Of a stretch of 64,000 nt of DNA, positions 1,144 through 52,735 are shown in pieces; within the stretch, counting starts at the first letter, position 1, and each line of letters opens with the position of its first letter. A program made the position numbers and the translations under genes. The stretch comes from Candidatus Parcubacteria bacterium (GTDB lineage Bacteria; Patescibacteriota; Patescibacteriia; Patescibacteriales; UBA12075): contig CAWFCE010000001.1 in the NCBI GenBank assembly GCA_963814275.1, positions 67,307 to 131,306 on the forward strand. The letters are read 5' to 3'. Under the pieces are notes generated by a model. That model was not told the origin of the DNA, made no database searches, and saw only the letters and a program-made list of their open reading frames with translations.

Positions 1144-4100
1144 ACTTCTTCGCCTGATTCCGCCTTTCACGATAAAACAGTCACCTTCCTCGACGCGGCC
1201 AACAACGATTTCCATCTCTCATCCTCCGACACCGCCGCCCGTGATTCAGGCACTTCTACTGCCTATAGCCTATTGCCTACAGCCTATGATATCGACGGCA
1301 CTGCACGCGGAGGCGCGCCGGACATCGGCGCGGACGAGGTGCCGGTCGAATATGTTTCGACGATCTGCGAAAATACGTCCGCGGGGGGGAGTTGTTCGGA
1401 AATGGACTACAGCGACCTGTCCGACTGGGAGGACGCGGTCGAGGCCGATATCGTTTCCAGCGCCACCCGTATTTTCTCCGGCACCGGCACCGGCGAATTA
1501 AGCGAGAATGACAGCGTCTCGCTCTACTGGGGCGGCGCAACCGATTCCGGCATTGCCGGCACCGTGGTCGCCACCACCTCGGACCAGATCATGGTCGACT
1601 GGATAACCGGCACCACTTCGCCGGTAATCGCCCACGCTTCGGACACCTGGCGCAAGGACGCCTCGAACTACTGGACCATTTCCGGCACCGGCGACGACCT
1701 CGGCGCTTCGCCGATCGCGGTAGCCAAGATCGATGGGACGTGGAATGCGAGCGATACAGCACTCGTGACAATCGACGGTTGGACAACATCACGTGATGCA
1801 TATATTAAAGTATATTCAACCGATACCGCCCGGCATGATGGCACCTGGTCATATGATAAGTATCGAAACAGTGCCGGCATGAACAATTATGAACAATTTG
1901 TCAGAACTTCTGGGCTGCAAATGACCTATTTATATTCAGATCAGCATGGCGGTTTCGTAGTATATTCCGACAATCTTTTTCAAAATATTGACTCAAGTAG
2001 CGCTAAAGTAATATCTGCAGTAACAACCGATGCACCCAGCGGCGCGGCGACCATTGATACCTATACGATTTTTATAAATAACACAATATACAACGACCTG
2101 AACCCTACGGGTTATAGCCGCTTGATCGTACTTTCCGGGCGCACTAAGAATCATGTTTATTTCTATAATACCGATTGTATTAACAAGGATGACGGCAGCA
2201 ACAACGGCGGAGATGTAAACTGTTTCTATTACTCCCATACCAATACCGATGTCCACTATTGGAATACGATCGCCTATGTGCCCGATGGTGCCGATATAAA
2301 TAATGGTTCCGCTAGTGGGGATTATAATGTTACAACCGGCGACGGATTGCCGGGGAACAATACAGCCACCAATACTTCACCGGCTTTCGCTGAAATCGAT
2401 AACAATGATTTTCATCTCTCATCCAGTGATACAGTCGCTCGTGATCAGGGAATTGATCTTTCGGATAACCAGTTCCTTGCTTACACCGCAGATATTGACG
2501 GCGACACCCGGCCATTTAACGGTACCTGGGACATCGGTGCCGATGAATATGCGCTCTATACGATCTACCGCAGTGTCGGACCGGGTTCGACCGGCGCGCT
2601 CCTTTGCGCAACCAGCACGAATAACCTAAACATTTCCGGCTCTACCGCCACTTTCGACGGCGGCACGCTCGATAAGATCGGGGTAGGGGACGCGATCGTC
2701 TATAACGCGAGCTCGTCCATTGCCTTCATCTCCGGCCGCAACAATTCGAACTTCTCATATAGCGTTCAGAACGCGACCGGTGTTACTCCGGATACAGTTA
2801 CGGACGACACTGGCTGGTGTATTTTTAGGGCTTATACGTCATTAGCAAACGCTGAGTCCGGCACTACCAATACCAATATCCCAGTATCCTTCGATACCTG
2901 GTCGGATGGGCGTGACCTGGTCAGTAATAAGGAGCAGTGGAATATTGCCTGTTACGCTGATGCATCCGATGGCACAACGGTTGATATCGAAGGATGGACC
3001 ACAGGAATTTCCAATCATCTAAGGATTTTTACACCCAATTCATCCAGCGAAGTCGGTACCAGCCAACGGCATAATGGAGTTTGGTCGGCCAATGGTTATC
3101 GTCTGGAAGTTGATGGCGATACCTTGGACGTCTACGATGATTACGTTTGGATTGACGGATTACAGATCGATACCGCGCCCAACTCTTCCGGCACCAACAG
3201 AATGGGCATCCTGCTCTCAAATAATGAAACCGGCGGCGCTAAAATATCGAATAACATAATTAGATCATCGAATTACGGCGGCAGTGCTAACTATGGAATT
3301 TATGTAGGAGGTAATACTTCGGGAGCGGTAACCTATATATATAACAATATACTGGTGAGCCATAAAACCTATGGTATGTATATTAATGATTATGGCGACC
3401 GGGAAATAATCACCAATAACACTGTTTATAATTGTAATGTCGGTTTTTCGGTAAATTCAGGCCCTGGCCAGCCGGAAGCCTATAATAATATCGCAGCATC
3501 ATGCGATAGTGTTTGCTATGAAAATCTGTCTACCTTATCGGGTAATAATATATCTTCAGATGATACTGCCCCAGGCTCAAATTCGATTGTCAATGCAACC
3601 GTAAAGTTCTTTGACGAATTGAATGGTGATTACCATCTCTCTCCCGACGATACCGCCGCCCTTGACGCCGGCACTTCCTCGGTCTCCGACATCGTCACCA
3701 CCGACATCGACGGCGATCCCATCCATACCTATGACATCGGCGCGGACGATGGTTCTCAGTATTTTGTATCCAGTATCAAGTATCAAGGGGTGGACGCCGA
3801 ATTCGGCACTTTGGCGACCTGGGAAGACGCTAATGACGTTGACCTGACCGCCACGACCACCCTTGTTTTCGATATCGACACCACCACCGGCTATATCCCG
3901 TTCGGCGCCAGCGTGTACGGCACGTCTTCCTTCGCCGAAGCGTCGGTAACAGTAGTGGCTACGACTTCTAACCAGATATTGCTCTACAATATTGCCAGTT
4001 CGACTTTCCAGGACGGTGAATGGGTCTGCGTCGATGGCGCGCCAGCAAATTGCGTCCGACTGTCCGACGCGGGAAACCCGGCTATTGCCGTAGCCAGGAT

Positions 4101-7100: not shown

Positions 7101-10029
7101 CAATGACGCTTATGACGGGACTGTTTATTTCTGGAATAATATCATATACGATGTTGGGGCGGGTATAATCGCCGATACTGGTTCGTCATTCTATGCTTAT
7201 AATAATACTTTTTATAACTGTGATTATGGTTTGAGTTCGGAATGGAAGGCTGGGGTGGGCGGATCCGTTCTGGCTATAAATAATATCGTGCAAAATTGCA
7301 CTGATGGGTTTGATAGTTCATTCAACACTGCTTCCGATTATAATATTTCCGATATTGCCGGCGACCAGCCGGCCAGCGGCGCTCACGACAAGATGGAAAC
7401 TGACGTGATTTTCTTCGATGAATTGAATAAAGATTTTCACATATCCCCGGACGACACCGCCGCTCTCGACGCCGGCACGTCGTCGGTATCGGATATCGTC
7501 ACTACCGACATCGACGGAGCGCCGATCCATACCTACGACATCGGCGCGGACGACGGCAGTCAGTATTTTGTATCTAGTATTAAGTATCAGGGGTTTGATG
7601 CTGAATTCGGCACTTTGGCGACCTGGGAAGACGCTAATGATGTCGATCTGACCGCGACCACCACGCTCGTCTTCGATATCGACGCCACCACCGGTTACAT
7701 CCCGTTCGGCTCATCGCTTTACGGCACGACTTCTTTTGCCGTGGCTTCGACCACGCTCGTGGCTACTTCGTCGAACCAGATACTTCTCTACAATATAGCG
7801 AGTTCCACCTTCCAGTCCGGCGAATGGGTCTGCCTGGAAGGCGCGCCCGCCAACTGCGTACGCCTGGCCAACGCCGGCAACCCGGCCATTGCCGTCGCCA
7901 AGATCGACGGAGCCTGGGCCGGGGCGGATACGAGCGCGGTAACTATAAATGGCTGGACGACTGGGAAATATAACTATATCAAGGTTTATACGACTGATAC
8001 GGCACGGCATCAGGGGAAGTGGGATGATAATAAGTATCGTTTAGTTAACAATGGGATTATATTTAATGAAAGCAATGCTATAGAATTTGACGGCATACAG
8101 TTTTATCGCACCGGAACAACAGGGGGGGGCGGAACTATACTATTTAACTATCTTTCAAGTGCTAATATTACTTTTTCAAATAATATTGTTAAAAGAGATT
8201 CATATTATGATTGTTTGAAAGTTTTTGGTAAGTCAACTAGCGTTTATAAAATTTATAATAATATTTTATACGATTGTGGCGGATCAGGAATAGTTTTAGA
8301 CAGCGGAGTAGGTGGTGGTGGATATATTTATAATAATACAGTCAGCGATTGTGGAAATGGTTTTTATTTTATCAATGCAAATTTGTTTACAATGAAAAAC
8401 AATATTTCCTATAACAATATAGACAATTACTCCGGCTCTTACAGTAATTTAACTGCCAGCCATAATCTTTCTGGACCGACACAGTCGAATGCTCCTGGGT
8501 CTAGTCCGGTAAATAATGCCACAGTAACTTTCCTGGATTCAGCTAATCAGGACTTCCGTCTAATGCCCGAGGATACGGCTGCGCGCGACGCGGGCACGAA
8601 TTTAAGTGCGGATGTGAACCTGCATTTCACGGACGACGCGCAGGGGAATGAGCGTTATGACGCCAAATGGGACATCGGCGCGCTCGAAGGGCCGACGATT
8701 ATTTACCGCAGCGTCGGCAACGACACGAGCAACCTGGCCGGAGCCGGCAATACCGTGACGATCACGAAAGTATCAGGCGGCAACGCGACCACGACCGCAG
8801 TTTTCGCCAATGAACTGCCGGATAATGTGGGCGTGGGGGATGTATTGCAATACGGCGGCAGCGGTTATTACCAATTAGCCTTCATCACCGCCCGCGCCTC
8901 CTCCACCCAGTACGAAGTCCAGGCACGCGACGGCACCCTGCCGGATGCCACCACCTCGGCCCCGGTCAGTATCTTTCGGGCGCACGAATTCCTGGATGAC
9001 TGGGAGGATCAACTTGAAGTTGATGTGAACGACGGGATTGACGGCAGTGTTGACGAGCTAGTTCTGTATCCCAAAGCGAGCCTTGATTTAACAGCTTCCA
9101 ATACCGCCATGTTCGTACCCTGCTACGCTTCGACAAGTCCTGACAATTTAGCAGTTAATATAGACGGATGGACGACTGCCACAACCAGCTATATAAAAAT
9201 ATATACACCGAAAGATACTAATGAAGTAGGCATAAGCCAACGCCATAATGGTTTATCGGGTAGCGGTTATGTTCTAAAAAATAGTTATGATCAGCAGATA
9301 CTAATAAATGATTCAAATGTTAAGTTGGTTGGGATTGAAAGCGATTGTAGTGATTCAACAACTGGAAGCTACTGTGTTCATATATGGGCAAATACTGGCC
9401 AGTCAAATACTAATTTAACAATCGATTCATGTTTATTGGATAATAGACGTAATGACACGACATTGGGATCGGGCATTAGGTTAAATAATGCTGGTACGAG
9501 TTCAACTTTTTATCTAACCAATAATATTATTATGACTGATAATCAAATAGGGATTTACTTAAGATTTGACGAAGGTGGTTCAAACGCTAGCATATATATT
9601 TATAACAACACAATATCGTCATCGACAACAGGCATCTCGTCCTATCCTGATGCATATGTAGTTGTTAAAAATAACGTAATTTTCAACACTTCCGATGATT
9701 TTTCTAGCTCTTTTGATATTCTCGACCACAACGCCTCCGACGACCTGGACGGGGACAATCCGATCGATATCAGTCCGGGGGCGAGTGAGGCGGACGGCTG
9801 GGCGGCGGCTTTCGTCGATTATGCCAATGGGGATTTCCGGATCAAGAGCATTTATTCGCCGCTCTATGACGCCGGTACGCCGATCACGCTCATAACCGAT
9901 GACATCGTGGGAACGGCCCGCCCGCAGAACAATGCTTATGACGTCGGCGCTTTCGAGTTCACCGGCGCGCCGAAATTCAAGATAAAGGGCGGGACGATCA
10001 AGATGCAGGGACACTTGGAATTTAAGTAA
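1141..10029 (+). CDS. Giant repetitive right-handed beta-helix surface protein or adhesin. The track ORF is 1273..10029 (2918 aa); the frame is open from 1099 and homology starts at 1141.
   Basis: A long ORF with repeated modules. Recurrent signatures are IDGWTT..YI(K/R)(I/V)YT..ARH.G.W, NNI/YNN rungs typical of parallel beta-helices, and D.DG..R..DIGADE caps of the kind seen at the ends of beta-helix surface proteins. Confidence 0.85.
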   Translation, partial: NTSSPDSAFHDKTVTFLDAANNDFHLSSSDTAARDSGTSTAYSLLPTAYDIDGTARGGAPDIGADEVPVEYVSTICENTSAGGSCSEMDYSDLSDWEDAVEADIVSSATRIFSGTGTGELSENDSVSLYWGGATDSGIAGTVVATTSDQIMVDWITGTTSPVIAHASDTWRKDASNYWTISGTGDDLGASPIAVAKIDGTWNASDTALVTIDGWTTSRDAYIKVYSTDTARHDGTWSYDKYRNSAGMNNYEQFVRTSGLQMTYLYSDQHGGFVVYSDNLFQNIDSSSAKVISAVTTDAPSGAATIDTYTIFINNTIYNDLNPTGYSRLIVLSGRTKNHVYFYNTDCINKDDGSNNGGDVNCFYYSHTNTDVHYWNTIAYVPDGADINNGSASGDYNVTTGDGLPGNNTATNTSPAFAEIDNNDFHLSSSDTVARDQGIDLSDNQFLAYTADIDGDTRPFNGTWDIGADEYALYTIYRSVGPGSTGALLCATSTNNLNISGSTATFDGGTLDKIGVGDAIVYNASSSIAFISGRNNSNFSYSVQNATGVTPDTVTDDTGWCIFRAYTSLANAESGTTNTNIPVSFDTWSDGRDLVSNKEQWNIACYADASDGTTVDIEGWTTGISNHLRIFTPNSSSEVGTSQRHNGVWSANGYRLEVDGDTLDVYDDYVWIDGLQIDTAPNSSGTNRMGILLSNNETGGAKISNNIIRSSNYGGSANYGIYVGGNTSGAVTYIYNNILVSHKTYGMYINDYGDREIITNNTVYNCNVGFSVNSGPGQPEAYNNIAASCDSVCYENLSTLSGNNISSDDTAPGSNSIVNATVKFFDELNGDYHLSPDDTAALDAGTSSVSDIVTTDIDGDPIHTYDIGADDGSQYFVSSIKYQGVDAEFGTLATWEDANDVDLTATTTLVFDIDTTTGYIPFGASVYGTSSFAEASVTVVATTSNQILLYNIASSTFQDGEWVCVDGAPANCVRLSDAGNPAIAVARIDGAWAGADTSAVDIDGWTTGKYNYIKIYTTVTARHQGKWDDNKYRIMKSNTTIITSEEEFVQIDGLQVGFIADTGSGNYFAIWGTADGSGEFSISNNIVRGVENTGGGYQIGIVPAYISGQTISRVWNNIIYDCTGPNAEGIEQDDTDSTTYFYNNTVYNCNIGIFYHNGGSFIAKNNIAYNNTANYGSTPGSESAYNMTSQTPSSAIAWGVAADNGTTDSAAAGKLIQSGQDFLTTVKTGMVIKNTSDNTYTYVTAVDSDIQLSVNDDIMLSGKVYVIYTNMYGLPDFVDIANNDPHLAQFDTVAKNKGINLYSDPYLALNTDIDGTARGGATDIGADEVPVEFVSTICETPGSGGDCGNMDYSHLGGTGNWEDKVESDLTAAATRVFSGTGTGELDEDDTVELYWGGATDSGIDATVVATTVAGQILVDGVTGTTSPVVAHSSDTWRKDASNYWTISGTGDDLGASPIAIAKIDGTWNATDTVYLRINGWGADYDNYVKIYTTDMARHNGAADYDAYRIWYDYSDAQNYVSISISNAGNYYIEGLQIYPSDNSISLSGGINLANGCTVYVYNNLFFGGPKSNGQRGMFSIYDLSAKESNIYNNIISGLTLCILGGDYVYNNTLYDCSDTGILSGATIAINNIVASTTDPFDGTFTDGTTNNSTDAADSPGIGTNYQNQTFSFVDAANGDFHLTKDDTGAKDKGVDLSSTSTLSFSDDIDGDARPAFNAWDIGADEYALYTIYRSVGPGSTGALLCATSTNNLNISGSSATFDGGTLDNIGVGDAIVYNASSSIAFISGRSSNFAYSVQDAAGVTPDAVTDDTGWCIFRAYTSLQNAVDDALGGTENTGIPAAVRDFDTWTGGQDLVANKEQWNVACYADAADTVGSGGVDINGWTTSETNYIKVYTPVSASEVGVSQRHSGKWDTNGYRLEATGYPNHLDIYDDYVKIDGLQVSMTPTNSNPYRVIYIRQDSVKVWISNSIIKGIGDASYSVNYGVFANDAYDGTVYFWNNIIYDVGAGIIADTGSSFYAYNNTFYNCDYGLSSEWKAGVGGSVLAINNIVQNCTDGFDSSFNTASDYNISDIAGDQPASGAHDKMETDVIFFDELNKDFHISPDDTAALDAGTSSVSDIVTTDIDGAPIHTYDIGADDGSQYFVSSIKYQGFDAEFGTLATWEDANDVDLTATTTLVFDIDATTGYIPFGSSLYGTTSFAVASTTLVATSSNQILLYNIASSTFQSGEWVCLEGAPANCVRLANAGNPAIAVAKIDGAWAGADTSAVTINGWTTGKYNYIKVYTTDTARHQGKWDDNKYRLVNNGIIFNESNAIEFDGIQFYRTGTTGGGGTILFNYLSSANITFSNNIVKRDSYYDCLKVFGKSTSVYKIYNNILYDCGGSGIVLDSGVGGGGYIYNNTVSDCGNGFYFINANLFTMKNNISYNNIDNYSGSYSNLTASHNLSGPTQSNAPGSSPVNNATVTFLDSANQDFRLMPEDTAARDAGTNLSADVNLHFTDDAQGNERYDAKWDIGALEGPTIIYRSVGNDTSNLAGAGNTVTITKVSGGNATTTAVFANELPDNVGVGDVLQYGGSGYYQLAFITARASSTQYEVQARDGTLPDATTSAPVSIFRAHEFLDDWEDQLEVDVNDGIDGSVDELVLYPKASLDLTASNTAMFVPCYASTSPDNLAVNIDGWTTATTSYIKIYTPKDTNEVGISQRHNGLSGSGYVLKNSYDQQILINDSNVKLVGIESDCSDSTTGSYCVHIWANTGQSNTNLTIDSCLLDNRRNDTTLGSGIRLNNAGTSSTFYLTNNIIMTDNQIGIYLRFDEGGSNASIYIYNNTISSSTTGISSYPDAYVVVKNNVIFNTSDDFSSSFDILDHNASDDLDGDNPIDISPGASEADGWAAAFVDYANGDFRIKSIYSPLYDAGTPITLITDDIVGTARPQNNAYDVGAFEFTGAPKFKIKGGTIKMQGHLEFK

Positions 10030-16627: not shown

Positions 16628-16729
16628 AGTATTAAGTATCGAGTATTAAGTATTAAGTATTTATTTTTTCAGGGTAGGATATAAAGTATAATACTTAATA
16701 CTTAATACTTAATACATAATACTCGATAC
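16628..16729. repeat. Short-period AT-rich hairpin of the GTATTAAGTAT family
   Basis: The arm agtattaagtatcgagtattaagtattaagtat pairs with atacttaatacttaatacttaatacataatactcgatac. The same word family occurs at 39941-40015. Confidence 0.7.
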
Positions 16730-16736
16730 ATTATAT

Positions 16737-17789
16737 ATGAAAGATGAAATATTAAAATTAAAAAATAAGATTTTGAAAGAAATAATCGGCGTGGATGGCC
16801 TGAAATCGCTTGAGGAGCTGCAGACCAAATACCTGGGACGCAAGGGCGAATTGGCCGGGATGATGAAGCAACTTACCAGCCTGGAAGAAGGGAAAAAACG
16901 GGAAATCGGCCAGATCCTGAATGAAGCCAAAAAGGAGCTGATGGAAAAATTCAGGGCGGCCCGGGATAAATTTACCGCCGGCCCGGGACAGGAGTTCGTT
17001 GATGTTACTTTGCCGGGGACCAAGCCGCCTGCCGGCCACCTTCATCCGATCACCCAGATCCAGAACGAACTGGAAGACCTGTTCCGTTCGATGGGTTTCA
17101 TGATATTGGACGGCTCCGAATTGGAAAGCGAATACTATAATTTCGAGGCGCTCAATGTGCCCTATTGGCACCCGGCGCGCGATATGCAGGATACCTTTTA
17201 CGCGGAAGACATACCGGACCCTGCTACCACGAAAAACAGCAAAGATAAAAAAGGCAAAGGCCTGGTGATGCGGACGCAAACCTCGCCGGTCCAAGTGCGG
17301 GCGATGCAGAAATACGGCGTCCCCCTGCGCTGTGTCGTGCCGGGCCGGGTTTTCCGCAACGAAGCGACCGACGCGGTGCATGAAACCACTTTCTATCAGC
17401 TGGAAGGCTTGATGGTCGGTGAGGGAATATCATTGGCCAATCTGATATCAGTAATGAAAGAAATGCTTAATGGGATATTCGACCAAGAAGTAAAGATCCG
17501 CATCCGCCCCGGTTATTTTCCGTTCGTCGAACCCGGTTTGGAAGTGGATATGGCCTGCACCCAATGCGGCGGCGCCGGCTGTCCGGCCTGCAAGCATTCC
17601 GGCTGGCTGGAGATGATCGGCTCGGGCATGGTCCATCCCAATGTCCTCCGGGCGGGCGGTGTCGATCCGGAAAAATACTCCGGCTTTGCCTTCGGCCTGG
17701 GAGTGACCCGCTTGGCGATGATGCGGTACGGCATCGATGATATCAGATTGTTCAATAGTGGAGATATGAGGTTTTTGGAACAATTTTGA
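16737..17789 (+). CDS. pheS: Phenylalanine--tRNA ligase alpha subunit
   Basis: 350 aa. The C-terminal class II core is FPFVEPGLEVDM...GWLEMIGSGMVHPNVL...GFAFGLGVTRLAMMRYGIDDIRLF. Confidence 0.95.
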   Translation: MKDEILKLKNKILKEIIGVDGLKSLEELQTKYLGRKGELAGMMKQLTSLEEGKKREIGQILNEAKKELMEKFRAARDKFTAGPGQEFVDVTLPGTKPPAGHLHPITQIQNELEDLFRSMGFMILDGSELESEYYNFEALNVPYWHPARDMQDTFYAEDIPDPATTKNSKDKKGKGLVMRTQTSPVQVRAMQKYGVPLRCVVPGRVFRNEATDAVHETTFYQLEGLMVGEGISLANLISVMKEMLNGIFDQEVKIRIRPGYFPFVEPGLEVDMACTQCGGAGCPACKHSGWLEMIGSGMVHPNVLRAGGVDPEKYSGFAFGLGVTRLAMMRYGIDDIRLFNSGDMRFLEQF

Positions 17790-18075
17790 TAAATTCTACC
17801 GAACTTCAGTTCGGGTTCGCCGTATGATCCGGCGGACTAAAGTCCGCCAAACCCCGGTTAAAACCGGGTAGAAGATTAATTCTACCGAACTTCAGTTCGG
17901 GTTCGCCGTATGATCCGGCGGACTAAAGTCCGCCAAACCCCGGTTAAAACCGGGTAGAAGATTAATTCTACCGAACTTCAGTTCGGGTTCGCCGTATGAT
18001 CCGGCGGACTAAAGTCCGCCAAACCCCGGTTAAAACCGGGTAGAAGATTAATTCTACCGAACTTCAGTTCGGGTT
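17788..18075 (+). repeat. Tandem array (3 full copies plus 24 nt) of an 86-nt multi-hairpin REP/BIME-like unit
   Basis: Units start at 17794, 17880, 17966 and 18052. Each contains the hairpins CCGAAC-TTCA-GTTCGG, GGCGGAC-TAAA-GTCCGCC and CCCGGTT-AA-AACCGGG. A GGTAGAA/TTCTACC inverted repeat spans each unit junction. Confidence 0.9.
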
Positions 18076-18687
18076 TATAAAAGGAGGAAATGTTTAATGA
18101 CAACAAAAGCCAATTAACATGGCCGGATGATACAGTATATTTTCTTACAGATTCCGCGTATTTGCACTATCCATATTTTCGGACAGATGAACAAAAGCAA
18201 ATCGTTCTGGATCAATTCAAAAAATTACAATCGGAAATGAATGTATCGATAATGGCCTATAGCATCGCCATAAACCATTATCATATAATGTTCTATTTGC
18301 CTAAGGGCAAGAGAATGGATAATATAAAAAAATCGTTAAGGGGAGGGATATCATTCTTGTATAAGAAAAGATTTTCAGTTACGTATCCGGAAATGCGGCA
18401 AAGCAGAAAAATTTATAGGGTATGGGATGAAGATGCCAGTATAAAAATAAAAGGATATATTATTGGAAATTTGCTAAAACATAAAGAAGTCGGAACATTT
18501 AATGACTTAAGAGAAAATAAATTTTCAAGCTATTGGTATTATGCGGATAAATATGGCGATAATGAGGCGAAGGAACTCGTTTATCAGGTTATCGATGCGG
18601 ATGAAGACAGCTGGGGAGAAGTAAATATTAATAAATTAAGGAATATTCAAGCTAAAAAAACATAACCCGAACTGAAGTTCGGTAGAA
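18052..18687 (+). mobile_element. RAYT-type unit: a Y1/HUH transposase-like gene bounded by perfect 24-nt inverted hairpin repeats
   Basis: TTCTACCGAACTTCAGTTCGGGTT at 18052-18075 is the exact reverse complement of 18664-18687. The right repeat overlaps the stop codon. Confidence 0.7.
18090..18665 (+). CDS. IS200-like / REP-associated tyrosine transposase (RAYT)-like HUH protein
   Basis: 191 aa. VYFLTDSAY is a YF.T-type N-terminus, NHYHIMFYLP is an HUH motif, IYRVWDED resembles W...F.D, and YIIGNLLKH resembles the catalytic-Tyr motif YIH.NPVKH. AAGGAGG sits just upstream of the start. Confidence 0.65.
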   Translation: MFNDNKSQLTWPDDTVYFLTDSAYLHYPYFRTDEQKQIVLDQFKKLQSEMNVSIMAYSIAINHYHIMFYLPKGKRMDNIKKSLRGGISFLYKKRFSVTYPEMRQSRKIYRVWDEDASIKIKGYIIGNLLKHKEVGTFNDLRENKFSSYWYYADKYGDNEAKELVYQVIDADEDSWGEVNINKLRNIQAKKT

Positions 18688-18728: not shown

Positions 18729-21173
18729 ATGTATCTCTCTCTAAACTGGTTAAAAGATTTCGTTTCCCTGCCCCGGTCGCTCAAGCCGGAAGAGCTGGCG
18801 GTCAAATTGACGATGCATACGGTCGAGATCGACGGCGTCACCCGGGAAGCGGAAAAATACAAGAACGTGGTTGTCGGCAGGATATTGGCGGTCAAACCCC
18901 ATCCCAATGCCGATAAATTGCAGCTGGCCGAAGTCGATGTGAAATCGGAAACTCTGGAAATAGTCTGCGGCGCGCCGAATATCGAAGCCGGCCAGCATGT
19001 GCCGGTCGCTTTGGTCGGCGCCGTCCTGCCCAACGGGCTTATGATCAAGGAAGCGGAGATACGCGGAATGAAATCGCGCGGCATGCTGTGCGCCGAAGAC
19101 GAACTGGGGCTGGGCGAAGACCACGCGGGAATCATGGTCCTCGGCGGCAAAGCCAAAATCGGACAGCCATTTGCCGATTATCTCGGAGTCAAAGACGTCG
19201 TATTCGAAGTAGACAACAAATCGATCACCCATCGGCCGGACCTCTGGAGCCATTACGGCATGGCACGCGAAATAGCCGCTTTCCTGGATTGCCCCTTCAA
19301 GGCCATTAGCCCCGCGCCCGTGAAGGTATCCGCCAAGAATAAGGACAAAAACCGCATTTCACTTACGGTGAAAGTCGATGACCACAAGCTTTGTCCCCGC
19401 TATATGGCCGTGGCCATCGGCAATATCAAGATCGAACCTTCTCCCCAGTGGCTGCAGGACCGCCTGGTCGCGGCCGGAACCAGGCCAATCAATAATATCG
19501 TCGATGTGACCAATTATGTGATGCTGGAGCTGGGACAGCCCCTGCATGCTTTTGGCGCCTCATTGATCACCCGCTCCAAAACCGATAACGGCCAAGCGAA
19601 TATTCTGGTCAGGAAGGCCAAGAAAGGGGAGAAGATAACTACCTTGGACGGAGTGAACAGGGATCTGCGCGAAGATATGCTTCTCATCACCGACGGCGAG
19701 CGGCCGATAGCGATTGCCGGCGTTATGGGCGGGGAAAACAGCGAAGTAAAAGAAGATACCGAGACAGTGATATTGGAGTCGGCCAATTTCGACCATGTGT
19801 CCATCCGCCTGACCTCGGCCGCGCTGGACCTGAAAACAGAAGCGGCCAAGCGCTACGAAAAATCCCTTGACCCCAATCTGGCCGAATTGGCCCTCTGCCG
19901 CGCCGTCGAACTTATCAAAAAGATCCTGCCGCAAGCGGCGGTAGTCAGCGAGATCGCCGATGTCAAACAATTCACGCTCAATCAGGGTCCGGTAAATATC
20001 GACTGGGACTGGCTTGGGAAATTCCTTGGCCAGGAATTGGATAGGGACCGGGTGCTTAAGACTTTGGCCGCTCTCGGCTTTACTGTCATTCAGGACGATA
20101 AGCTCCTCAAGGTATCGATACCGACCTGGCGCGCGACCAAAGACATTTCGATCCGCGAGGATATTGCCGAAGAAATTGCCCGCCTGTTCGGCTACGGTAA
20201 TTTCAAGCCATCCATGCCGCAGGTGGAAATGGCCACCCCGGAGATCAACCGGCCGCGTTTGCTCGAACGGCGCATAAAGACCATTTTAGCCGGCGCCGGA
20301 TTGGCCGAGGTATACAATTATTCTTTTGTCGGCGAGGACCAGCTCAAAAAAATGGGCATTGACCATCGCCGCCACTTGCGCCTGTTGAATCCGGTCAACC
20401 GCCACCAGGGCCTCCTAAGGCAATCGCTGGCGCCGAATCTGCTCTTAAATATTCCGACCAACCAGGCCCGTTACGGCAATATCCGCTTGTTCGAGGTCGG
20501 CAGCGTATTTTTGCCGATCGAGGGCGGGATCAATAGGGATGACCAGGGCGGCCATTTGCCCTACCAGGAAGACCGGCTGGGCGTATTGGCGGCCGGTGAT
20601 CCGGGCGATGATGTTTTCGGCACCGTTAAAGGGTTATTGGCTTTTCTGCTGGAAAGGCTTAACTTGGAGGTTGTTTATAATGCATTAGAACACGGACCGA
20701 ACTGGGCGGAACCGGGACAAAGCGCGGAAATCAGCGTCTTCAGCCAGTCGATCGGCACTGTCGCCAAGGCTGGTGTTGCCTGCGCCAAAAAATGCGGGAT
20801 AAAAAAGGCGGCCGCGGTCGCAGAGCTTAGCCTGCCCAAGCTTTTGAAATTGTATTCGCAATATAGCGCAAAGAAATTCCGGGAATTCGCCAAGTATCCG
20901 CCGCTAGTCAGGGATTTGGCTTTTATTGTCAGGGAAAACATAATATACAACGATATATTCCGTGAGATATCCGATTTTCACGAGTATATCCGCTCGGTGG
21001 AATTATTCGACGTATATCATGGGGAGAAATTGGGCAAAAGCAACAAGAGCCTGGCTTTTCACGTCGCCTATCAGGCGGACCGCACCCTGGCCGGGGATGA
21101 AGTAGACAAGATACAGGCCGGATTGGTCAAACATTTGGAAGACAAGTTCGAGGCGAAGGTGAGGAATTTTTAA
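18729..21173 (+). CDS. pheT: Phenylalanine--tRNA ligase beta subunit
   Basis: 814 aa. It starts MYLSLNWLKDFV, has the tRNA-binding domain VVGRILAVKPHPNADKLQLAEVDV, and shows B3/4, B5 and C-terminal anticodon-binding-like regions. Confidence 0.95.
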   Translation: MYLSLNWLKDFVSLPRSLKPEELAVKLTMHTVEIDGVTREAEKYKNVVVGRILAVKPHPNADKLQLAEVDVKSETLEIVCGAPNIEAGQHVPVALVGAVLPNGLMIKEAEIRGMKSRGMLCAEDELGLGEDHAGIMVLGGKAKIGQPFADYLGVKDVVFEVDNKSITHRPDLWSHYGMAREIAAFLDCPFKAISPAPVKVSAKNKDKNRISLTVKVDDHKLCPRYMAVAIGNIKIEPSPQWLQDRLVAAGTRPINNIVDVTNYVMLELGQPLHAFGASLITRSKTDNGQANILVRKAKKGEKITTLDGVNRDLREDMLLITDGERPIAIAGVMGGENSEVKEDTETVILESANFDHVSIRLTSAALDLKTEAAKRYEKSLDPNLAELALCRAVELIKKILPQAAVVSEIADVKQFTLNQGPVNIDWDWLGKFLGQELDRDRVLKTLAALGFTVIQDDKLLKVSIPTWRATKDISIREDIAEEIARLFGYGNFKPSMPQVEMATPEINRPRLLERRIKTILAGAGLAEVYNYSFVGEDQLKKMGIDHRRHLRLLNPVNRHQGLLRQSLAPNLLLNIPTNQARYGNIRLFEVGSVFLPIEGGINRDDQGGHLPYQEDRLGVLAAGDPGDDVFGTVKGLLAFLLERLNLEVVYNALEHGPNWAEPGQSAEISVFSQSIGTVAKAGVACAKKCGIKKAAAVAELSLPKLLKLYSQYSAKKFREFAKYPPLVRDLAFIVRENIIYNDIFREISDFHEYIRSVELFDVYHGEKLGKSNKSLAFHVAYQADRTLAGDEVDKIQAGLVKHLEDKFEAKVRNF

Positions 21174-39940: not shown

Positions 39941-40015
39941 AGTATCCAGTATTAAGTATTAGGTATTAAGCGGCTTGCTAATATACCTAATACTTAATAC
40001 CAGATACTTAATACT
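39941..40015. repeat. Short-period hairpin of the GTATTAAGTAT family
   Basis: agtatccagtattaagtattaggtattaag pairs with atacctaatacttaataccagatacttaatact. Confidence 0.7.
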
Positions 40016-40020
40016 ATTTA

Positions 40021-43000
40021 ATGAAAAGATTTCCCTATAAAATAGTAATATTTTTATTCGTCTTGACTCTTCTATCGGCAGGGTTTGCCGTCCTGCCGGT
40101 CCATGCTGCCGACCTGGGCTTGAACTATGCCGCCAATTTCGGTTTGCAGACGACCGGCACGACCGATGTCCGCGACCTGATCGTCAGTATCGTCCGGTAT
40201 TTCATCGGTTTTTTGGGCATTATCGCGGTCATTATCATCCTGTACGGCGGGTTTCTCTGGATGACTTCCGCCGGCAATGTCCAGAAAGTGGAAAAGGCCA
40301 AAAAAACATTGATTGCCGGAGTGATCGGATTGATCATAATTATGGCGGCTTTTGCCATCGTGACTTTTATCATCAACTTCGTTAACGATTCGCTCGAATC
40401 CACCTGCACCGCCGACTGTCCGGGCGGCAAATGCTGCCAGGGCGGACCGGATTACTGCTGTGATACGAGCCAGACATGCTGCAATAGCGCCGGTCCACAG
40501 TGCTGTGATGCCGGCCAGTATTGCTGCGCTACCGGTTGTTCGGCCACGCCTTGCGGCGGTATCGGTCCGGGAGAGCCGTTCCGGATCAATTCGACCAAGC
40601 CGCAAGACGCCAGCGCCAACGTCATTCAAAATGCCCGGATCCGCTTCGATTTCAATTATCGGGTCGATAGCGCGACGGTTGATGATGTTACTTTTGCCGT
40701 TAGCGGCAGCACCGGACCGATCGCCGGCATCACTACGGTAGATAGCAGCCGCATAATATTTACGCCCGCGGCCGGTTTATGCCCGGCCAATACCTGCGGG
40801 GCGGTAAATTGTTTTGCCGCCGGGGACACTGTGACAGTGGCAGCGCAGGAGATCAGGAGCTTAAGCGGCGATGAACTCGCCCAGATGATTAATCCTTTCA
40901 CCGGCTTGCCGGAAGGCTGCGGAACAGCGGCCAGTCCCTGCACCGTCACTTTCACGGTCGGGGATACCGTCGATTGCCAGGACCCGCAGGTCGGCCTCAG
41001 TTTCGACCAGGTATGCGTCGGTACCGACAATCCGCTTGACGCCTGGGCAAGCGACGACAGTTTGGTGACCAATATCGAATTATCTATCGACGGCACAATA
41101 GAAAGTGATGAGGTGAACAGCGCCAGCGACAATCCCTTTTTTGCCACTTTCCATTGGGACGGTGGCGGTTTTAGCGCCGGTGACAGCGTTACCTTCCGAG
41201 CCACCGCTTACGACCTGGACGACCACAGCAAGAGCGCTACGATCAGCCGGACCATGAGGCCGGCGCATTGCTGCGACGGACTTTTGAATATGGACGAAAC
41301 CGGCACCGATTGCGGCGGCAGCTGCGGCGCTTGCGATGGAGCGGCCTGCGGCGTGAACCTGGCGGATGATTGCGCGATTACGACAGGAGTGGATTGCAGC
41401 CTGAATAATAACCGTTGTTCATCTGATTTTTGTAGCTGTACTTCGGCCGGTACCGACTGCCAGGATGCCGGATACGACGGCGGAGTGGACGATTGCTGCC
41501 TCTGCCAGCGTCCGCCGGAAATTGACCGGATCACGCCGATGGGCGGATTTTGCCGGCAGGATGACGATTCGCCAACCAATAATCCCTGCCGCGAGGACGG
41601 CGATTGTTCCACCGGTTACTGTGATACCGATACCGCCAACGGCGCGGCCAACAATTTGATCACGATTGCCGGCCGCGGTTTCGGCACGGTTCCGGGCGCG
41701 GTGGAGATCGACGGGGAAAATGCGAGCTATTCTATTCCCGGCTGCGGCGTGACTTGGAATGACAAAGAGATCGTCGCGCAGATACCGGGTACGATCAGCT
41801 CCCCCCTCTTGAGCAATTTACTTATCCGGGTAACCGCGGATGACGGATACGAAGATACGACCGGCGCGGACGGCCGTGGTCCGGAACTTGATTTCATATA
41901 CAATTCGATAGAGCGGCCGGGATTGTGCTCTACTACTCCCGACCGCGGGCCGTTCAATACGCCGGTTAGCTACCAGGGGCTTAACATGGCCGGCGGCACC
42001 GCCTTTTTCGGCAGTTTTTCTTCGAATGTTACGGCGCTTAACTCGGTATTCGGCGGTACGAACGGTACCGCCAATGTGCCTAATATAAAAGAGGGCCAGA
42101 CTACGACATTTCTCGGCCGCGGACTGCTTAACAGTAATTTTCTCAGGTTTACGAAAACAGCTGAGCCGGTACTCGGCCCGGCCATTACCAACTTTGACCC
42201 TTCTGACGGCGCGCCGGGAACATATGTGACGATCTACGGCAACGGTTTCGGTCCGAACCGGACCGCCAGCCGCCATGTATATTTCGGGCCCGTGGGCGTG
42301 AATGAGGCCAGTTATGAATTCCCCGATGTCTGCGCCGGCGAGCTTTGGCGCGATACCCGGGTGATCGTCAAAGTGCCGGATGGACTGGTCGCGGGAAATT
42401 ATATCATAACCATGGATTTGGCCGGAACCGTGGTCGATAGCGGGGGAGACACTTTTACCGTCAACGACGTGATTCGTCCCAATCTCTGCCTGATCAAGCC
42501 GACCGTCGGTACGGTCGGTGATACGATATCGCTCTGGGGCGAGGATTTCGGCCCGGAATCGAGCGGTTCGGTATTATTTTATTCCGGTGTTAGCCAGGAT
42601 ATATTTTCTACATGGGAAAACGCGGCTGTTCCCAACAATATCATTACCACCATTCCCGATGACGCGATTACCGGACCGGTACGGGCCGTTCGTAGCGGTA
42701 ACGAAGGAAACAGCATCGATATCATTGTCGGCGAGTGCACCGGCGCGCCCGATCCGGACGCGGCTTGCGGCAGCCAGTTCTGCTGTCCGGCCGGCACATT
42801 CCGGGAAGGCCGCTGCGTCGATGATCCGGCCGATCCGGCAGACGGCTGCGATATCGGCCTGGGGTCATCGGTCTATGAATGGGAATTCAATACCAGCCTG
42901 GGTCTGGGCGGCGTCGGCGATCCCTGCCGTGATGCCTCTACTCCCAGTTGTCCGGATAATCCCGAATGTATGGACGGTTTGTTCTGTGATGCCGGCACTT

Positions 43001-51430: not shown

Positions 51431-52609
51431 ATGGCAGAAGTAAAACCGGCTATAGAAACTTTCGCCAAAATTAAGGTCGTCGGCGTCGGCGGCGGCGGAG
51501 GCGCGGCAGTTAATCGAATGGTGGATACGGGAATCAGGGGAGTTGATTTTATTGCCGTAAATACTGATGTCCAGGCGCTGCATTATAATAAGGCGGGCAA
51601 AAAGCTGCATATTGGCAAAACCATCACCCGCGGATTAGGGGCCGGGATGAACCCGGAGCTGGGGCGCCAAGCGGCTGAAGAGTCGCAAAACGAGATCAGG
51701 GACGCGCTGAAGGATGCCGATATGGTGTTCGTAACCTGCGGCATGGGAGGAGGCACCGGTTCCGGCGCTTCTCCGGTCGTCGCGGAAATCGCTCGTGACC
51801 TGGGGGCATTGACGGTTGCCGTCGTGACCAAGCCGTTTTCCTTCGAGGGCGCCCAGCGCCGCAATATCGGCGAGCGCGGGCTGACCGATCTGGCGGATAA
51901 GGTGGACACTATCATTACCATTCCTAACGATAAATTACTTCAGGTGATCGACAAGAAAACATCGCTTCTGGATGCTTTCCGGGTGGTCGACGAGGTGCTC
52001 CAACAGGGGGTGCAGGGGATCGCGGAATTGATCACAATCCCGGGCCTCATCAATGTCGATTTTGCCGACGTAAAGGCGGTAATGGCCAACGCCGGTTCGG
52101 CGCTTATGGGAATAGGCGTCGCCAGCGGCGAGAATAAAGCGATCGAAGCGGCCAAGACGGCAATCAGTTCACCGCTTCTGGAGATGTCGATCGAGGGCGC
52201 GCGCGGTATATTATTCACCATCACCGGCGGCGAGTCGCTCGGTATGAGCGACGTGAACGAAGCGGCCAAGATCATCACTGCTTCGGCTGATGAGGATGCC
52301 AAGATCATATTTGGCGCGGCAATCGACCATAAGATGAAAGACGAATTGAAGATCACCGTAGTCGCTACCGGCTTTGACGGCCGGATCGGGGGAGGGGAGC
52401 GTCTTACGAGCGAAAACAGCTATTCACCCAATAAATATATTACGGAAAAAGAAAAAGAAGAAAAAGAAAAAGTCAGCCGATTCAAGTCCAAACCCTCTCC
52501 GCTTAAAGCCGCCCAAGCCGAACCGGCCAAGAAAAAACCGACCGCTACCGAATCCGACGAAGACGATGAATTGGGGATCCCGGCTTTTATTAGGAAGAAA
52601 ATGCAGTAG
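51431..52609 (+). CDS. ftsZ: Cell division protein FtsZ
   Basis: 392 aa. It has [15 protein letters not shown], the tubulin signature [13 protein letters not shown], and the C-terminal peptide [15 protein letters not shown]. Confidence 0.97.
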
Positions 52610-52735
52610 GCATTTGCGCATTCGGACGTGCCGAATTCGTAGTCCGGCGTCTATCGCTAAGAAAATGCAGTAGGCATTTGCGCATTCGGACGTGCCGAAT
52701 TTGTAGTCCGGCGCCTATCGCAAAGAAAATAATGC
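52595..52735 (+). repeat. 64-bp tandem repeat (2 copies plus a partial third) starting inside the last codons of ftsZ
   Basis: aagaaaatgcagtaggcatttgcgcattcggacgtgccgaatt.gtagtccggcg.ctatcgc starts at 52595 and at 52659, with a partial copy at 52723. Each copy carries the hairpin ATTCGG-ACGTG-CCGAAT. Confidence 0.9.

Follow-up and report, generated by a model that had tools for sequence, protein, structure and literature searches.

A probable REPtron between pheS and pheT in a Patescibacteria genome

Introduction

What is a small gene, closely surrounded by hairpin-forming repeats, doing between pheS and pheT, and how long has it been there? The question is raised by a 64,000-nucleotide (64-kb) stretch of contig CAWFCE010000001.1 from a Candidatus Parcubacteria bacterium (positions 67,307 to 131,306; hereafter the window), in which pheS stops at 17789 and pheT starts at 18729. 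A preliminary description, made from the letters alone, placed between the separated genes a nuclease like the REP-associated tyrosine transposases (RAYTs), accompanied by an array of hairpins resembling repetitive extragenic palindromes (REPs) and bacterial interspersed mosaic elements (BIMEs). Every coordinate and sequence given there for the pheS-RAYT-pheT locus was rechecked, and all were correct; several of the interpretations, as we explain below, have to be revised.

To our knowledge, work on REP-RAYT systems has been confined almost entirely to Proteobacteria. The literature that we searched held no paper linking RAYTs or REPs with Patescibacteria, or the candidate phyla radiation (CPR), one passing KEGG match apart. 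We argue that the locus is probably a REPtron: a single-copy, chromosomally fixed RAYT gene bracketed by inverted REPs, with three tandem and nonautonomous REP doublets on its pheS side that are similar to BIMEs or to REP doublets forming hairpins (REPINs). REP-RAYT as a kind of system is known already; what we add is a member from a phylum for which the searched papers give no description of it.

Results

The protein

Judged by sequence profiles and a predicted fold, the 191-aa open reading frame (ORF) between the two genes appears to be a divergent RAYT-type HUH/Y1 nuclease. The motifs NHYHIMF and YIIGNLLKH, to which the preliminary description had drawn attention, are both present, and the comparison with Y1_Tnp and RAYT profiles that it proposed gave matches to Pfam Y1_Tnp (PF01797; 22.7 bits, E = 1e-4) and, as the best NCBIfam model, to REP_Tyr_transpos (NF047646; E = 1.4e-9, residues 14-133), with both alignments spanning the HUH and catalytic-tyrosine regions. 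Of the 172 homologs (about 190 aa) returned by a database search, nearly all come from Patescibacteria; the sources label some of them transposase or RayT, and many carry the name "hypothetical protein." In the alignment that we built from 53 of them, H63, H65, Y123 and G126-N-L-L-K-H131 are invariant, and 52 of the 53 relatives match Y1_Tnp at E <= 0.01, the best at 2.4e-8. The AlphaFold2 model of the window protein made from this alignment (pLDDT 88.4, pTM 0.85) has as its top Foldseek match the E. coli RAYT in complex with a REP hairpin (4er8_A; E = 5e-8, 179 columns), followed by the TnpA structures of ISDra2, IS608 and IS200 (about 114 columns, E about 1e-5 to 1e-4); ranks 1-25 are exclusively RAYT or IS200/IS605 TnpA structures. 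Pfam, NCBIfam and Foldseek together support the original suggestion that a CPR genome here holds a RAYT-like HUH/Y1 protein along with its cognate hairpins of the REP/BIME kind. The gene is found once in the window, and the public record calls only a 142-aa version of it (P0001, 18237-18665), starting at an internal methionine; since the 49 N-terminal residues thus dropped hold invariant family positions, the 191-aa reading is correct.

The hairpins around the gene

A perfect 24-nt inverted repeat brackets the ORF: as had been reported, the letters at 18052-18075 are the exact reverse complement of those at 18664-18687, which overlap the stop codon. The REP hairpin has a perfectly paired stem of 6 bp and a loop of 4 nt, and the two copies are oriented 5'-TTCTAC-hairpin ... 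hairpin-GTAGAA-3', the conserved tag being 5'-hairpin-(G)TAGAA-3' or, on the other strand, 5'-TTCTA(C)-hairpin. Copies of the 24-mer number five in the window, against none expected by chance, and all lie at the pheS-pheT locus. The TAA stop of the RAYT gene (18663-18665) reaches 2 nt into the right REP, an overlap found family-wide; in one relative (locus L001 of our comparison) the TAG of GTAG is itself the stop codon.

Hairpins with the TAGAA tail also lie beside orthologs that are 58-66% identical, and there the stems change in a compensatory manner (GAAC/GTTC to GAGC/GCTC). Among 58 family loci collected by protein similarity alone, hairpin-GTAGA flanks are present in 48 and the canonical tails-outward arrangement in 31. 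For the analysis of covariation, 24-mers near family genes were picked by their unpaired ends only (AAC, 16 nt, TAGAA), giving 52 matches against an estimated 4 or so expected; the 33 distinct ones and the window's own right REP made a set of 34. In this set, 95.1% of the stem cells are paired, compared with 56.6% in shuffles and 34-47% in slid registers; double compensatory changes occur at all six stem pairs; and 81 two-sided changes stand against five one-sided ones, nearly all from one Watson-Crick pair to another with few G-U intermediates. What these alignments indicate to be conserved is the hairpin structure and its tail, as would be expected of a protein reading a folded single strand. 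The covariation of the stems is very strong, and hairpin and tail have been kept around homologous genes across Patescibacteria.

The tandem array

Tandem Repeats Finder (TRF) reports a single array on the pheS side of the gene (17788-18075, period 86, 3.3 copies, 99% matches, score 569), by a wide margin the strongest tandem repeat of the window and in agreement with the three 86-nt units and the partial unit described before. The hairpin element begins 4 nt past the TGA stop of pheS, and the order of the locus is three doublets, a fourth left REP, the RAYT gene and the right REP. Every unit carries the perfect hairpins CCGAAC/GTTCGG, GGCGGAC/GTCCGCC and CCCGGTT/AACCGGG, and the 80-nt unit folded as DNA forms exactly three hairpins at -19.6 kcal/mol (z = -3.9, a value reached by 0 of 200 shuffles). 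The preliminary description was right about these three hairpins, and comparison with the relatives makes their arrangement clearer: since the third hairpin with its TAGAA is an inverted variant of the REP, the unit is a REP doublet and not a set of three unrelated hairpins. Read in this way, each 86-nt unit comprises an 80-nt doublet (left REP, inner hairpin and inverted variant right REP) and a 6-nt spacer, and the array of doublets resembles a BIME or REPIN cluster. In an alignment with the relatives' doublets of 87-96 nt, the window unit is a shorter variant from which inner hairpin 2 is missing. Between pheS and the RAYT gene, L074 has no doublet, L075 one, L077 two and the window three; with doublet number varying in this way among close relatives, the array is the dynamic part of the locus.

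Two other readings of the units were tried and rejected. The GGTAGAA..TTCTACC inverted repeat that spans the unit junctions, noted earlier, is present in the sequence, and RNAalifold on doublets does draw a multiway junction closed by TTCTACC/GGTAGAA. A tRNA-like or cloverleaf unit was nevertheless dismissed, the closing pairs being invariant and omitted from the minimum free energy structure of a single unit, with no tRNA reported by ARAGORN and no match in Rfam; the TTCTACC and GGTAGAA termini simply are the outward tails of inverted REPs. A CRISPR-like array fails on units that are contiguous, identical and devoid of spacers.

Doublets in related genomes

We scanned 185,579 species-representative GTDB genomes (596 Gb), among which the source genome is not included, with the query CGARCTNAAGYTCGGTAGAA and obtained 68 loci, nearly all in Candidatus Falkowbacteria, Kuenenbacteria and other Patescibacteria. 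Four metagenome-assembled genomes (MAGs) hold 9-16 exact matches each, on separate contigs, and a RAYT-like gene is found in the fetched flanks of only three of the 68 loci, the other 65 being without one. Under uniform base composition, an estimated 17 or so random matches are expected in 596 Gb; only L032 and L053 look random, lying inside genes without the AACC prefix and without a partner, and the other loci carry family features that the query does not constrain. Most of the dispersed elements (55 of 79) are doublets of about 91 nt, with a modal length of 91-92 nt, in which two inner hairpins with loops of CTTTAG/CTAAAG lie between TTCTACC-hairpin and hairpin-GGTAGAA. They are mostly intergenic: 66 of the 79 lie outside ORFs of at least 80 aa, and 45 of 52 are located between co-directional genes. 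The RNAalifold consensus of 25 doublets, the window unit included, consists of four hairpins; 19 of its 28 pairs show compensatory changes, among them pairs of the left and inner hairpins, on which the search put no constraint. Finally, two Falkowbacteria genomes (86-94% DNA identity) share some doublets at orthologous sites and have others that are unique to each; elements present or absent at orthologous sites indicate that the doublets turn over. The junctions of these presence/absence pairs were too divergent to define a target site.

Several side observations concern the dispersed elements. In several Patescibacteria MAGs, a conserved GGRTRCTTTTTGGACAGTCTG-like sequence stands immediately 3' of many orphan doublets (L016, at 2715-2735, L027, L036, L038, L050, L056, L057, L012, L073, L048, L064, L043, L052 and L055); it could mark a site that is preferred as a target, or it could be an additional portion of a longer subtype of the element. 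Typical doublets also occur on short contigs of MAGs labeled Elusimicrobia, Bacteroidetes and Gammaproteobacteria (L025, L039 and L043); these are probably mis-binned CPR contigs, and the repeat could serve as a lineage marker. Many family loci are contigs of 1-2 kb, and short-read fragmentation at REP arrays may commonly break the contigs of CPR MAGs.

Age of the position downstream of pheS

The preliminary description had the element "wedged" between pheS and pheT. A fresh insertion of this kind does not hold: at least nine other genomes also have a RAYT ortholog directly after pheS, and the orthologs have diverged in step with pheS. A family member directly follows the pheS stop in L001, L035, L074/L076, L075, L077, L086/L087, L092 and L095, and the next gene is pheT in most and NIF3 in two. 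The identities of pheS and RAYT to the window copies fall together, from 75 and 62% in L075, 74 and 60% in L077 and 62 and 60% in L001, through 53 and 51% in L035 and 50 and 52% in L086, to 45 and 48% in both L092 and L095; against L001, pheT (56%) and the next small ORF (65%) are in line with pheS and RAYT. The comparison shows that the position after pheS is old and that the gene has co-diverged with pheS, rather than being a fresh insertion. In a crude neighbor-joining tree without support values, the pheS-linked copies form two clusters. We did not find the family on IMG/VR viral contigs, PLSDB plasmids or GenBank phages (INPHARED); the low copy number, vertical descent and absence from plasmids and phages that characterize RAYTs (Bertels et al. 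2017) are all seen here, with two copies in some relatives.

Individual relatives differ in their gene content. In Candidatus Falkowbacteria SZUA-104, the pheS-pheT copy is split over three frames (L023, 852-1359, QIIF01000152.1) and is likely a pseudogene, an intact paralog being located on another contig (L018, QIIF01000053.1). L004 has, at 944-1552, a second and more distant Y1_Tnp-like ORF of 202 aa, 4.4 kb upstream of the RAYT homolog P0007, from which it follows that some genomes hold several family genes.

Base composition

The RAYT gene has a GC content of 0.33, and 0.33 also at third codon positions (GC3); the GC3 of the immediate neighbors is 0.63-0.70, and that of every credible gene in the window is about 0.5-0.7. 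The gene is lower in GC than its flanks in 43 of 43 loci (including L076-L154), with means of 0.32 and 0.40 and a correlation of r = 0.68; in the AT-rich L001, gene and host have equal GC3. Given the lack of viral and plasmid carriers and the co-divergence with pheS, a simple recent transfer is a poor explanation for this composition. One may speculate about a gene-specific constraint, for example selection that keeps the nuclease weakly expressed, or codon selection so weak that an AT mutational bias shows through.

Layout of the locus and other repeats in the window

The features are collected in Table 1. L001 pheS, with which the upstream anchor gene was compared, carries Pfam tRNA-synt_2d, and the spacing between the Shine-Dalgarno-like motif and the start codon is comparably short in L074 and L075.

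Table 1. Features of the pheS-pheT region (positions in the window)
Feature	Position	Strand	Basis or remark
pheS, 350 aa	16737..17789	+	Upstream anchor gene; ORF list; 62% identical to L001 pheS
Tandem array, three 86-nt units and fourth left REP	17788..18075	+	TRF
Unit 1, 80-nt REP doublet, then spacer GATTAA	17794..17873	+	Sequence, DNA fold
Unit 1 left REP TTCTACCGAACTTCAGTTCGGGTT	17794-17817	+	
Unit 1 inner hairpin GGCGGACTAAAGTCCGCC	17831-17848	+	
Unit 1 right REP AACCCCGGTTAAAACCGGGTAGAA, inverted variant	17850-17873	+	
Unit 2, identical to unit 1	17880..17959	+	Sequence, TRF
Unit 3, identical to unit 1	17966..18045	+	Sequence, TRF
Fourth left REP (TTCTAC-hairpin-GTT), left boundary of RAYT cassette	18052..18075	+	Exact reverse complement of 18664-18687
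AGGAGG, Shine-Dalgarno-like motif, 2 nt before ATG	18082..18087	+	Read from sequence
Putative RAYT-family HUH/Y1 nuclease gene, 191 aa	18090..18665	+	H63-Y-H65, Y123; GC 0.33
Right REP AACCCGAACTGAAGTTCGGTAGAA	18664..18687	+	Overlaps RAYT stop by 2 nt
pheT, 814 aa	18729..21173	+	Downstream anchor gene; 56% identical to L001 pheT

The window holds other repeats as well. Arrays of the heptamer AGTATTA and its complement TAATACT, inverted around a spacer of about 27 nt, occupy AT-rich gaps just upstream of pheS (16628-16662 and 16689-16729) and of the gene starting at 40021 (39941-39968 / 39988-40015), with further heptamer sites at 108-135, 3772-3785 and 7562-7589; matches to AGTATTAAGTATTA with at most two mismatches number 16, against 0.48 expected, and these arrays are a separate intergenic repeat family. 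A tandem repeat of 64 nt (52595-52730, 2.1 copies, TRF score 251) starts from the 3' end of an ftsZ-like ORF. Its unit has the hairpins AATGC-AGTAG-GCATT and ATTCGG-ACGTG-CCGAAT, the second followed by TC-GTAG. No RAYT gene lies near this repeat, which may represent another REP-like family tagged with GTAG.

Discussion

Our analyses argue for a REPtron at this locus, and it is fair to set out what speaks against that reading. The profile scores are low: the Pfam Y1_Tnp score lies 0.3 bits under the cut-off of 23.0, the NF047646 score of 38 bits misses the equivalog cut-off of 80, and a PDB sequence search with the family profile gave chance matches only. The second of these makes the protein a divergent relative that falls outside the equivalogs in the curated RAYT set. 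The low GC3 looks foreign and fits awkwardly with a long vertical residence. The neighbor-joining tree interleaves the pheS-linked copies with copies at other sites, a pattern compatible with mainly vertical descent and occasional relocation. The GTAG stands 3' of the hairpin and not 5' as in E. coli. Within the window, moreover, no REP-like hairpin copy exists beyond the locus; such an absence from 64 kb says little, as even the relatives have, by our estimate, about one exact match per 50-100 kb. It does bear on the earlier characterization of the system as "active or recently active": the identical tandem units do no more than suggest this, and dispersal is seen only in the relatives.

If the locus is a REPtron, the mechanism can be imagined by analogy with E. 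coli TnpAREP and IS608 TnpA. When the DNA becomes single stranded, for example at a replication fork, each REP would fold into its 6-bp hairpin, and the protein would recognize the foot of the hairpin together with the invariant unpaired tail. Binding may then be followed by cleavage nearby, through Tyr123 and an HUH-bound metal, and by rejoining of the strands, and such cleavage and rejoining could excise, copy or rearrange the REP doublets. The tandem array may be the product of these events, or of slippage or recombination between repeats.

The rival explanations concern the reality of the array and the identity of the system. Array units that are 100% identical, at a place where short-read assemblies break, raise the suspicion that the assembly has collapsed or expanded the repeat and that the real number of copies is not three. 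An independent Logan assembly of the same organism (ERR11571143) indeed breaks at both array edges, with contig 1 (L156) ending in ...pheS-TGATAAA-TTCTACC..GGGTTCGCC and contig 2 (L157) starting with GATTAA-TTCTACC..GGGTT-TATAAAAGGAGG-RAYT. These contigs nevertheless carry two copies of the left REP whose contexts differ both upstream (GATAAA or GATTAA) and downstream (CGCC or TATAAAA), so that one full unit or more must lie between pheS and the ORF. As tandem doublets are also seen in the unrelated assemblies L077, L004, L015 and L047, and as REP dimers are known to be tandemly reiterated (PMC3733652), we consider an assembly artefact unlikely. An alternative that keeps the array is that an autonomous insertion sequence (IS) of the IS200/IS605 type, with tnpA only, recently transposed into the pheS-pheT spacer and that the 86-nt units are its miniature derivatives. 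The Y1_Tnp homology and the structural likeness to the TnpA of IS608, ISDra2 and IS200 are what such an element would show, and its GC3 of 0.33 beside 0.6-0.7, its identical tandem units, its perfect terminal repeats and the presence of more than one family gene in some relatives (the second ORF of L004 and the two QIIF01 copies) fit a newcomer. A recent arrival is, however, hard to combine with the same position after pheS in at least nine other genomes at a divergence parallel to that of pheS, and the low GC relative to the host, being family-wide, is no mark of a single event. IS200/IS605 elements end in noninverted left-end (LE) and right-end (RE) hairpins. The ends here are true inverted repeats; there is no adjacent tnpB-like ORF, and the gene is single copy in the window, so that neither a multicopy gene nor noninverted LE/RE ends nor tnpB was found. 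With hairpin elements far outnumbering genes in the relatives, no copies on plasmids or viruses (IMG/VR, PLSDB, GenBank phages) and a RAYT rather than an IS TnpA as the best structural match, a recent IS seems very unlikely.

A different possibility is that the array is mainly a regulatory or structural element of the pheST operon on the side of the host, such as an mRNA stabilizer, a pause site or partial terminator or a protein-binding site, and that the nuclease gene is incidental. Doublets do lie mostly between co-directional genes and near stop codons, REPs are reported to affect mRNA stability and termination (PMC3733652, PMC3479197), and the array contains no terminator on the + strand and would be transcribed with pheS. 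The inner hairpins, moreover, keep their pairing through compensatory changes and retain a CTAAAG-type loop, which suggests selection beyond recognition by a transposase. Nothing, on the other hand, links the array to the sensing of phenylalanine or tRNA, and no Rfam match was obtained; the excess of two-sided over one-sided changes fits hairpins formed in DNA on both strands; the same elements stand beside many unrelated genes; and the number of copies ranges from zero to three among the pheS-linked relatives. As the main explanation we regard it as very unlikely, and regulation by the host may be less a true rival than a second, subsidiary role of the array.

The orientation of the tag deserves separate consideration. 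The preliminary description likened the GTAG/CTAC next to the hairpin to that of enterobacterial REPs and left open whether the side was equivalent: the side is the opposite one. E. coli REPs have the form 5'-GTAG-hairpin, and both binding and cleavage by TnpAREP require the 5' GTAG; with a tag mirrored relative to these, the E. coli recognition geometry is not simply transferable. Either the TTCTAC strand would be the active one, with a guide-like tag of differing sequence, or the geometry itself would differ. In a bolder version, which we put forward tentatively and hold to be rather doubtful as a whole, this would be a Patescibacteria-wide vertical RAYT lineage, anchored at pheS since before the split of lineages whose pheS proteins are now 45-60% identical, with an invariant TAGAA tail and freely co-evolving stems. 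Its tag, opposite to that of every biochemically studied Y1 system, would imply another guide or cleavage geometry, and its four-hairpin doublets, with inner hairpins for which flanking the gene has no need, might be under selection in bacterial genomes that rank among the smallest, and beneficial to the host rather than selfish.

A REP-RAYT system across Patescibacteria would mean that even genomes of about 0.5-1 Mb retain such hairpin repeats along with the nuclease, and it bears on the debate between a selfish and a co-opted nature of REPINs and RAYTs. The family provides a comparative data set with an invariant tail, covarying stems and a gene that, beside the universal marker pheS, comes with a built-in clock, and the mirrored tag poses a concrete biochemical question on how Y1 nucleases read their guides. 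There is a practical side too: the repeats can break short-read assemblies of CPR genomes, and the gene is mis-called (at 142 aa) or, for many family members, annotated as hypothetical.

Comparison with known systems

The closest model is the E. coli REPtron (TnpAREP, RayT/YafM; PDB 4ER8; PMC3479197, Ton-Hoang et al. 2012), with a small HUH/Y1 protein of the same fold, a single-copy chromosomal gene bracketed by inverted REPs, an invariant unpaired tag at the foot of the hairpin and two inverted REP subtypes that are paired and tandemly reiterated in BIME clusters. The two differ in that the proteins are about 18% identical in the structural alignment and of 191 aa here but 165 aa there; the E. 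coli REP has a bulged stem of about 10 bp and the REP here a perfect 6-bp stem with a 4-nt loop; the order is GTAG-hairpin (5') there and hairpin-GTAGAA (3') here; and the doublets described here contain one or two extra inner hairpins and belong to a Patescibacteria host. With the REPIN-RAYT systems of Pseudomonas and Neisseria (PMC3116915, Bertels and Rainey 2011; PMC5581495, Bertels et al. 2017), the locus shares a nonautonomous inverted-REP unit of about 90 nt, intergenic and, in the relatives, dispersed, and a low-copy RAYT that is vertically inherited at a conserved chromosomal site and absent from plasmids. REPINs number in the hundreds there, compared with tens of exact matches per fragmented MAG of the relatives, and the gene is here consistently more AT-rich than the host.

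In the GTAG-tagged REP families (Di Nocera et al. 2013, PMC3733652), which form HH dimers and clusters, the stem-loop is likewise short and perfect and bears a GTAG-like tag at its terminus; the dimers, with tags outward, are tandemly reiterated and sit between unidirectional genes, and the 3' end of the RAYT may overlap a REP. The tail here is extended to TAGAA, Patescibacteria are not among the eight phyla reported, and the polarity appears mirrored, a comparison made with the E. coli REP only. The TnpA proteins of the IS200/IS605 family (IS608, ISDra2) and the miniature derivatives of these elements, finally, share the HUH/Y1 chemistry, the single-stranded DNA hairpins and a similar core fold; they are multicopy and mobile, with noninverted ends and often with tnpB, in contrast to the inverted ends, single copy and conserved synteny of the gene downstream of pheS.

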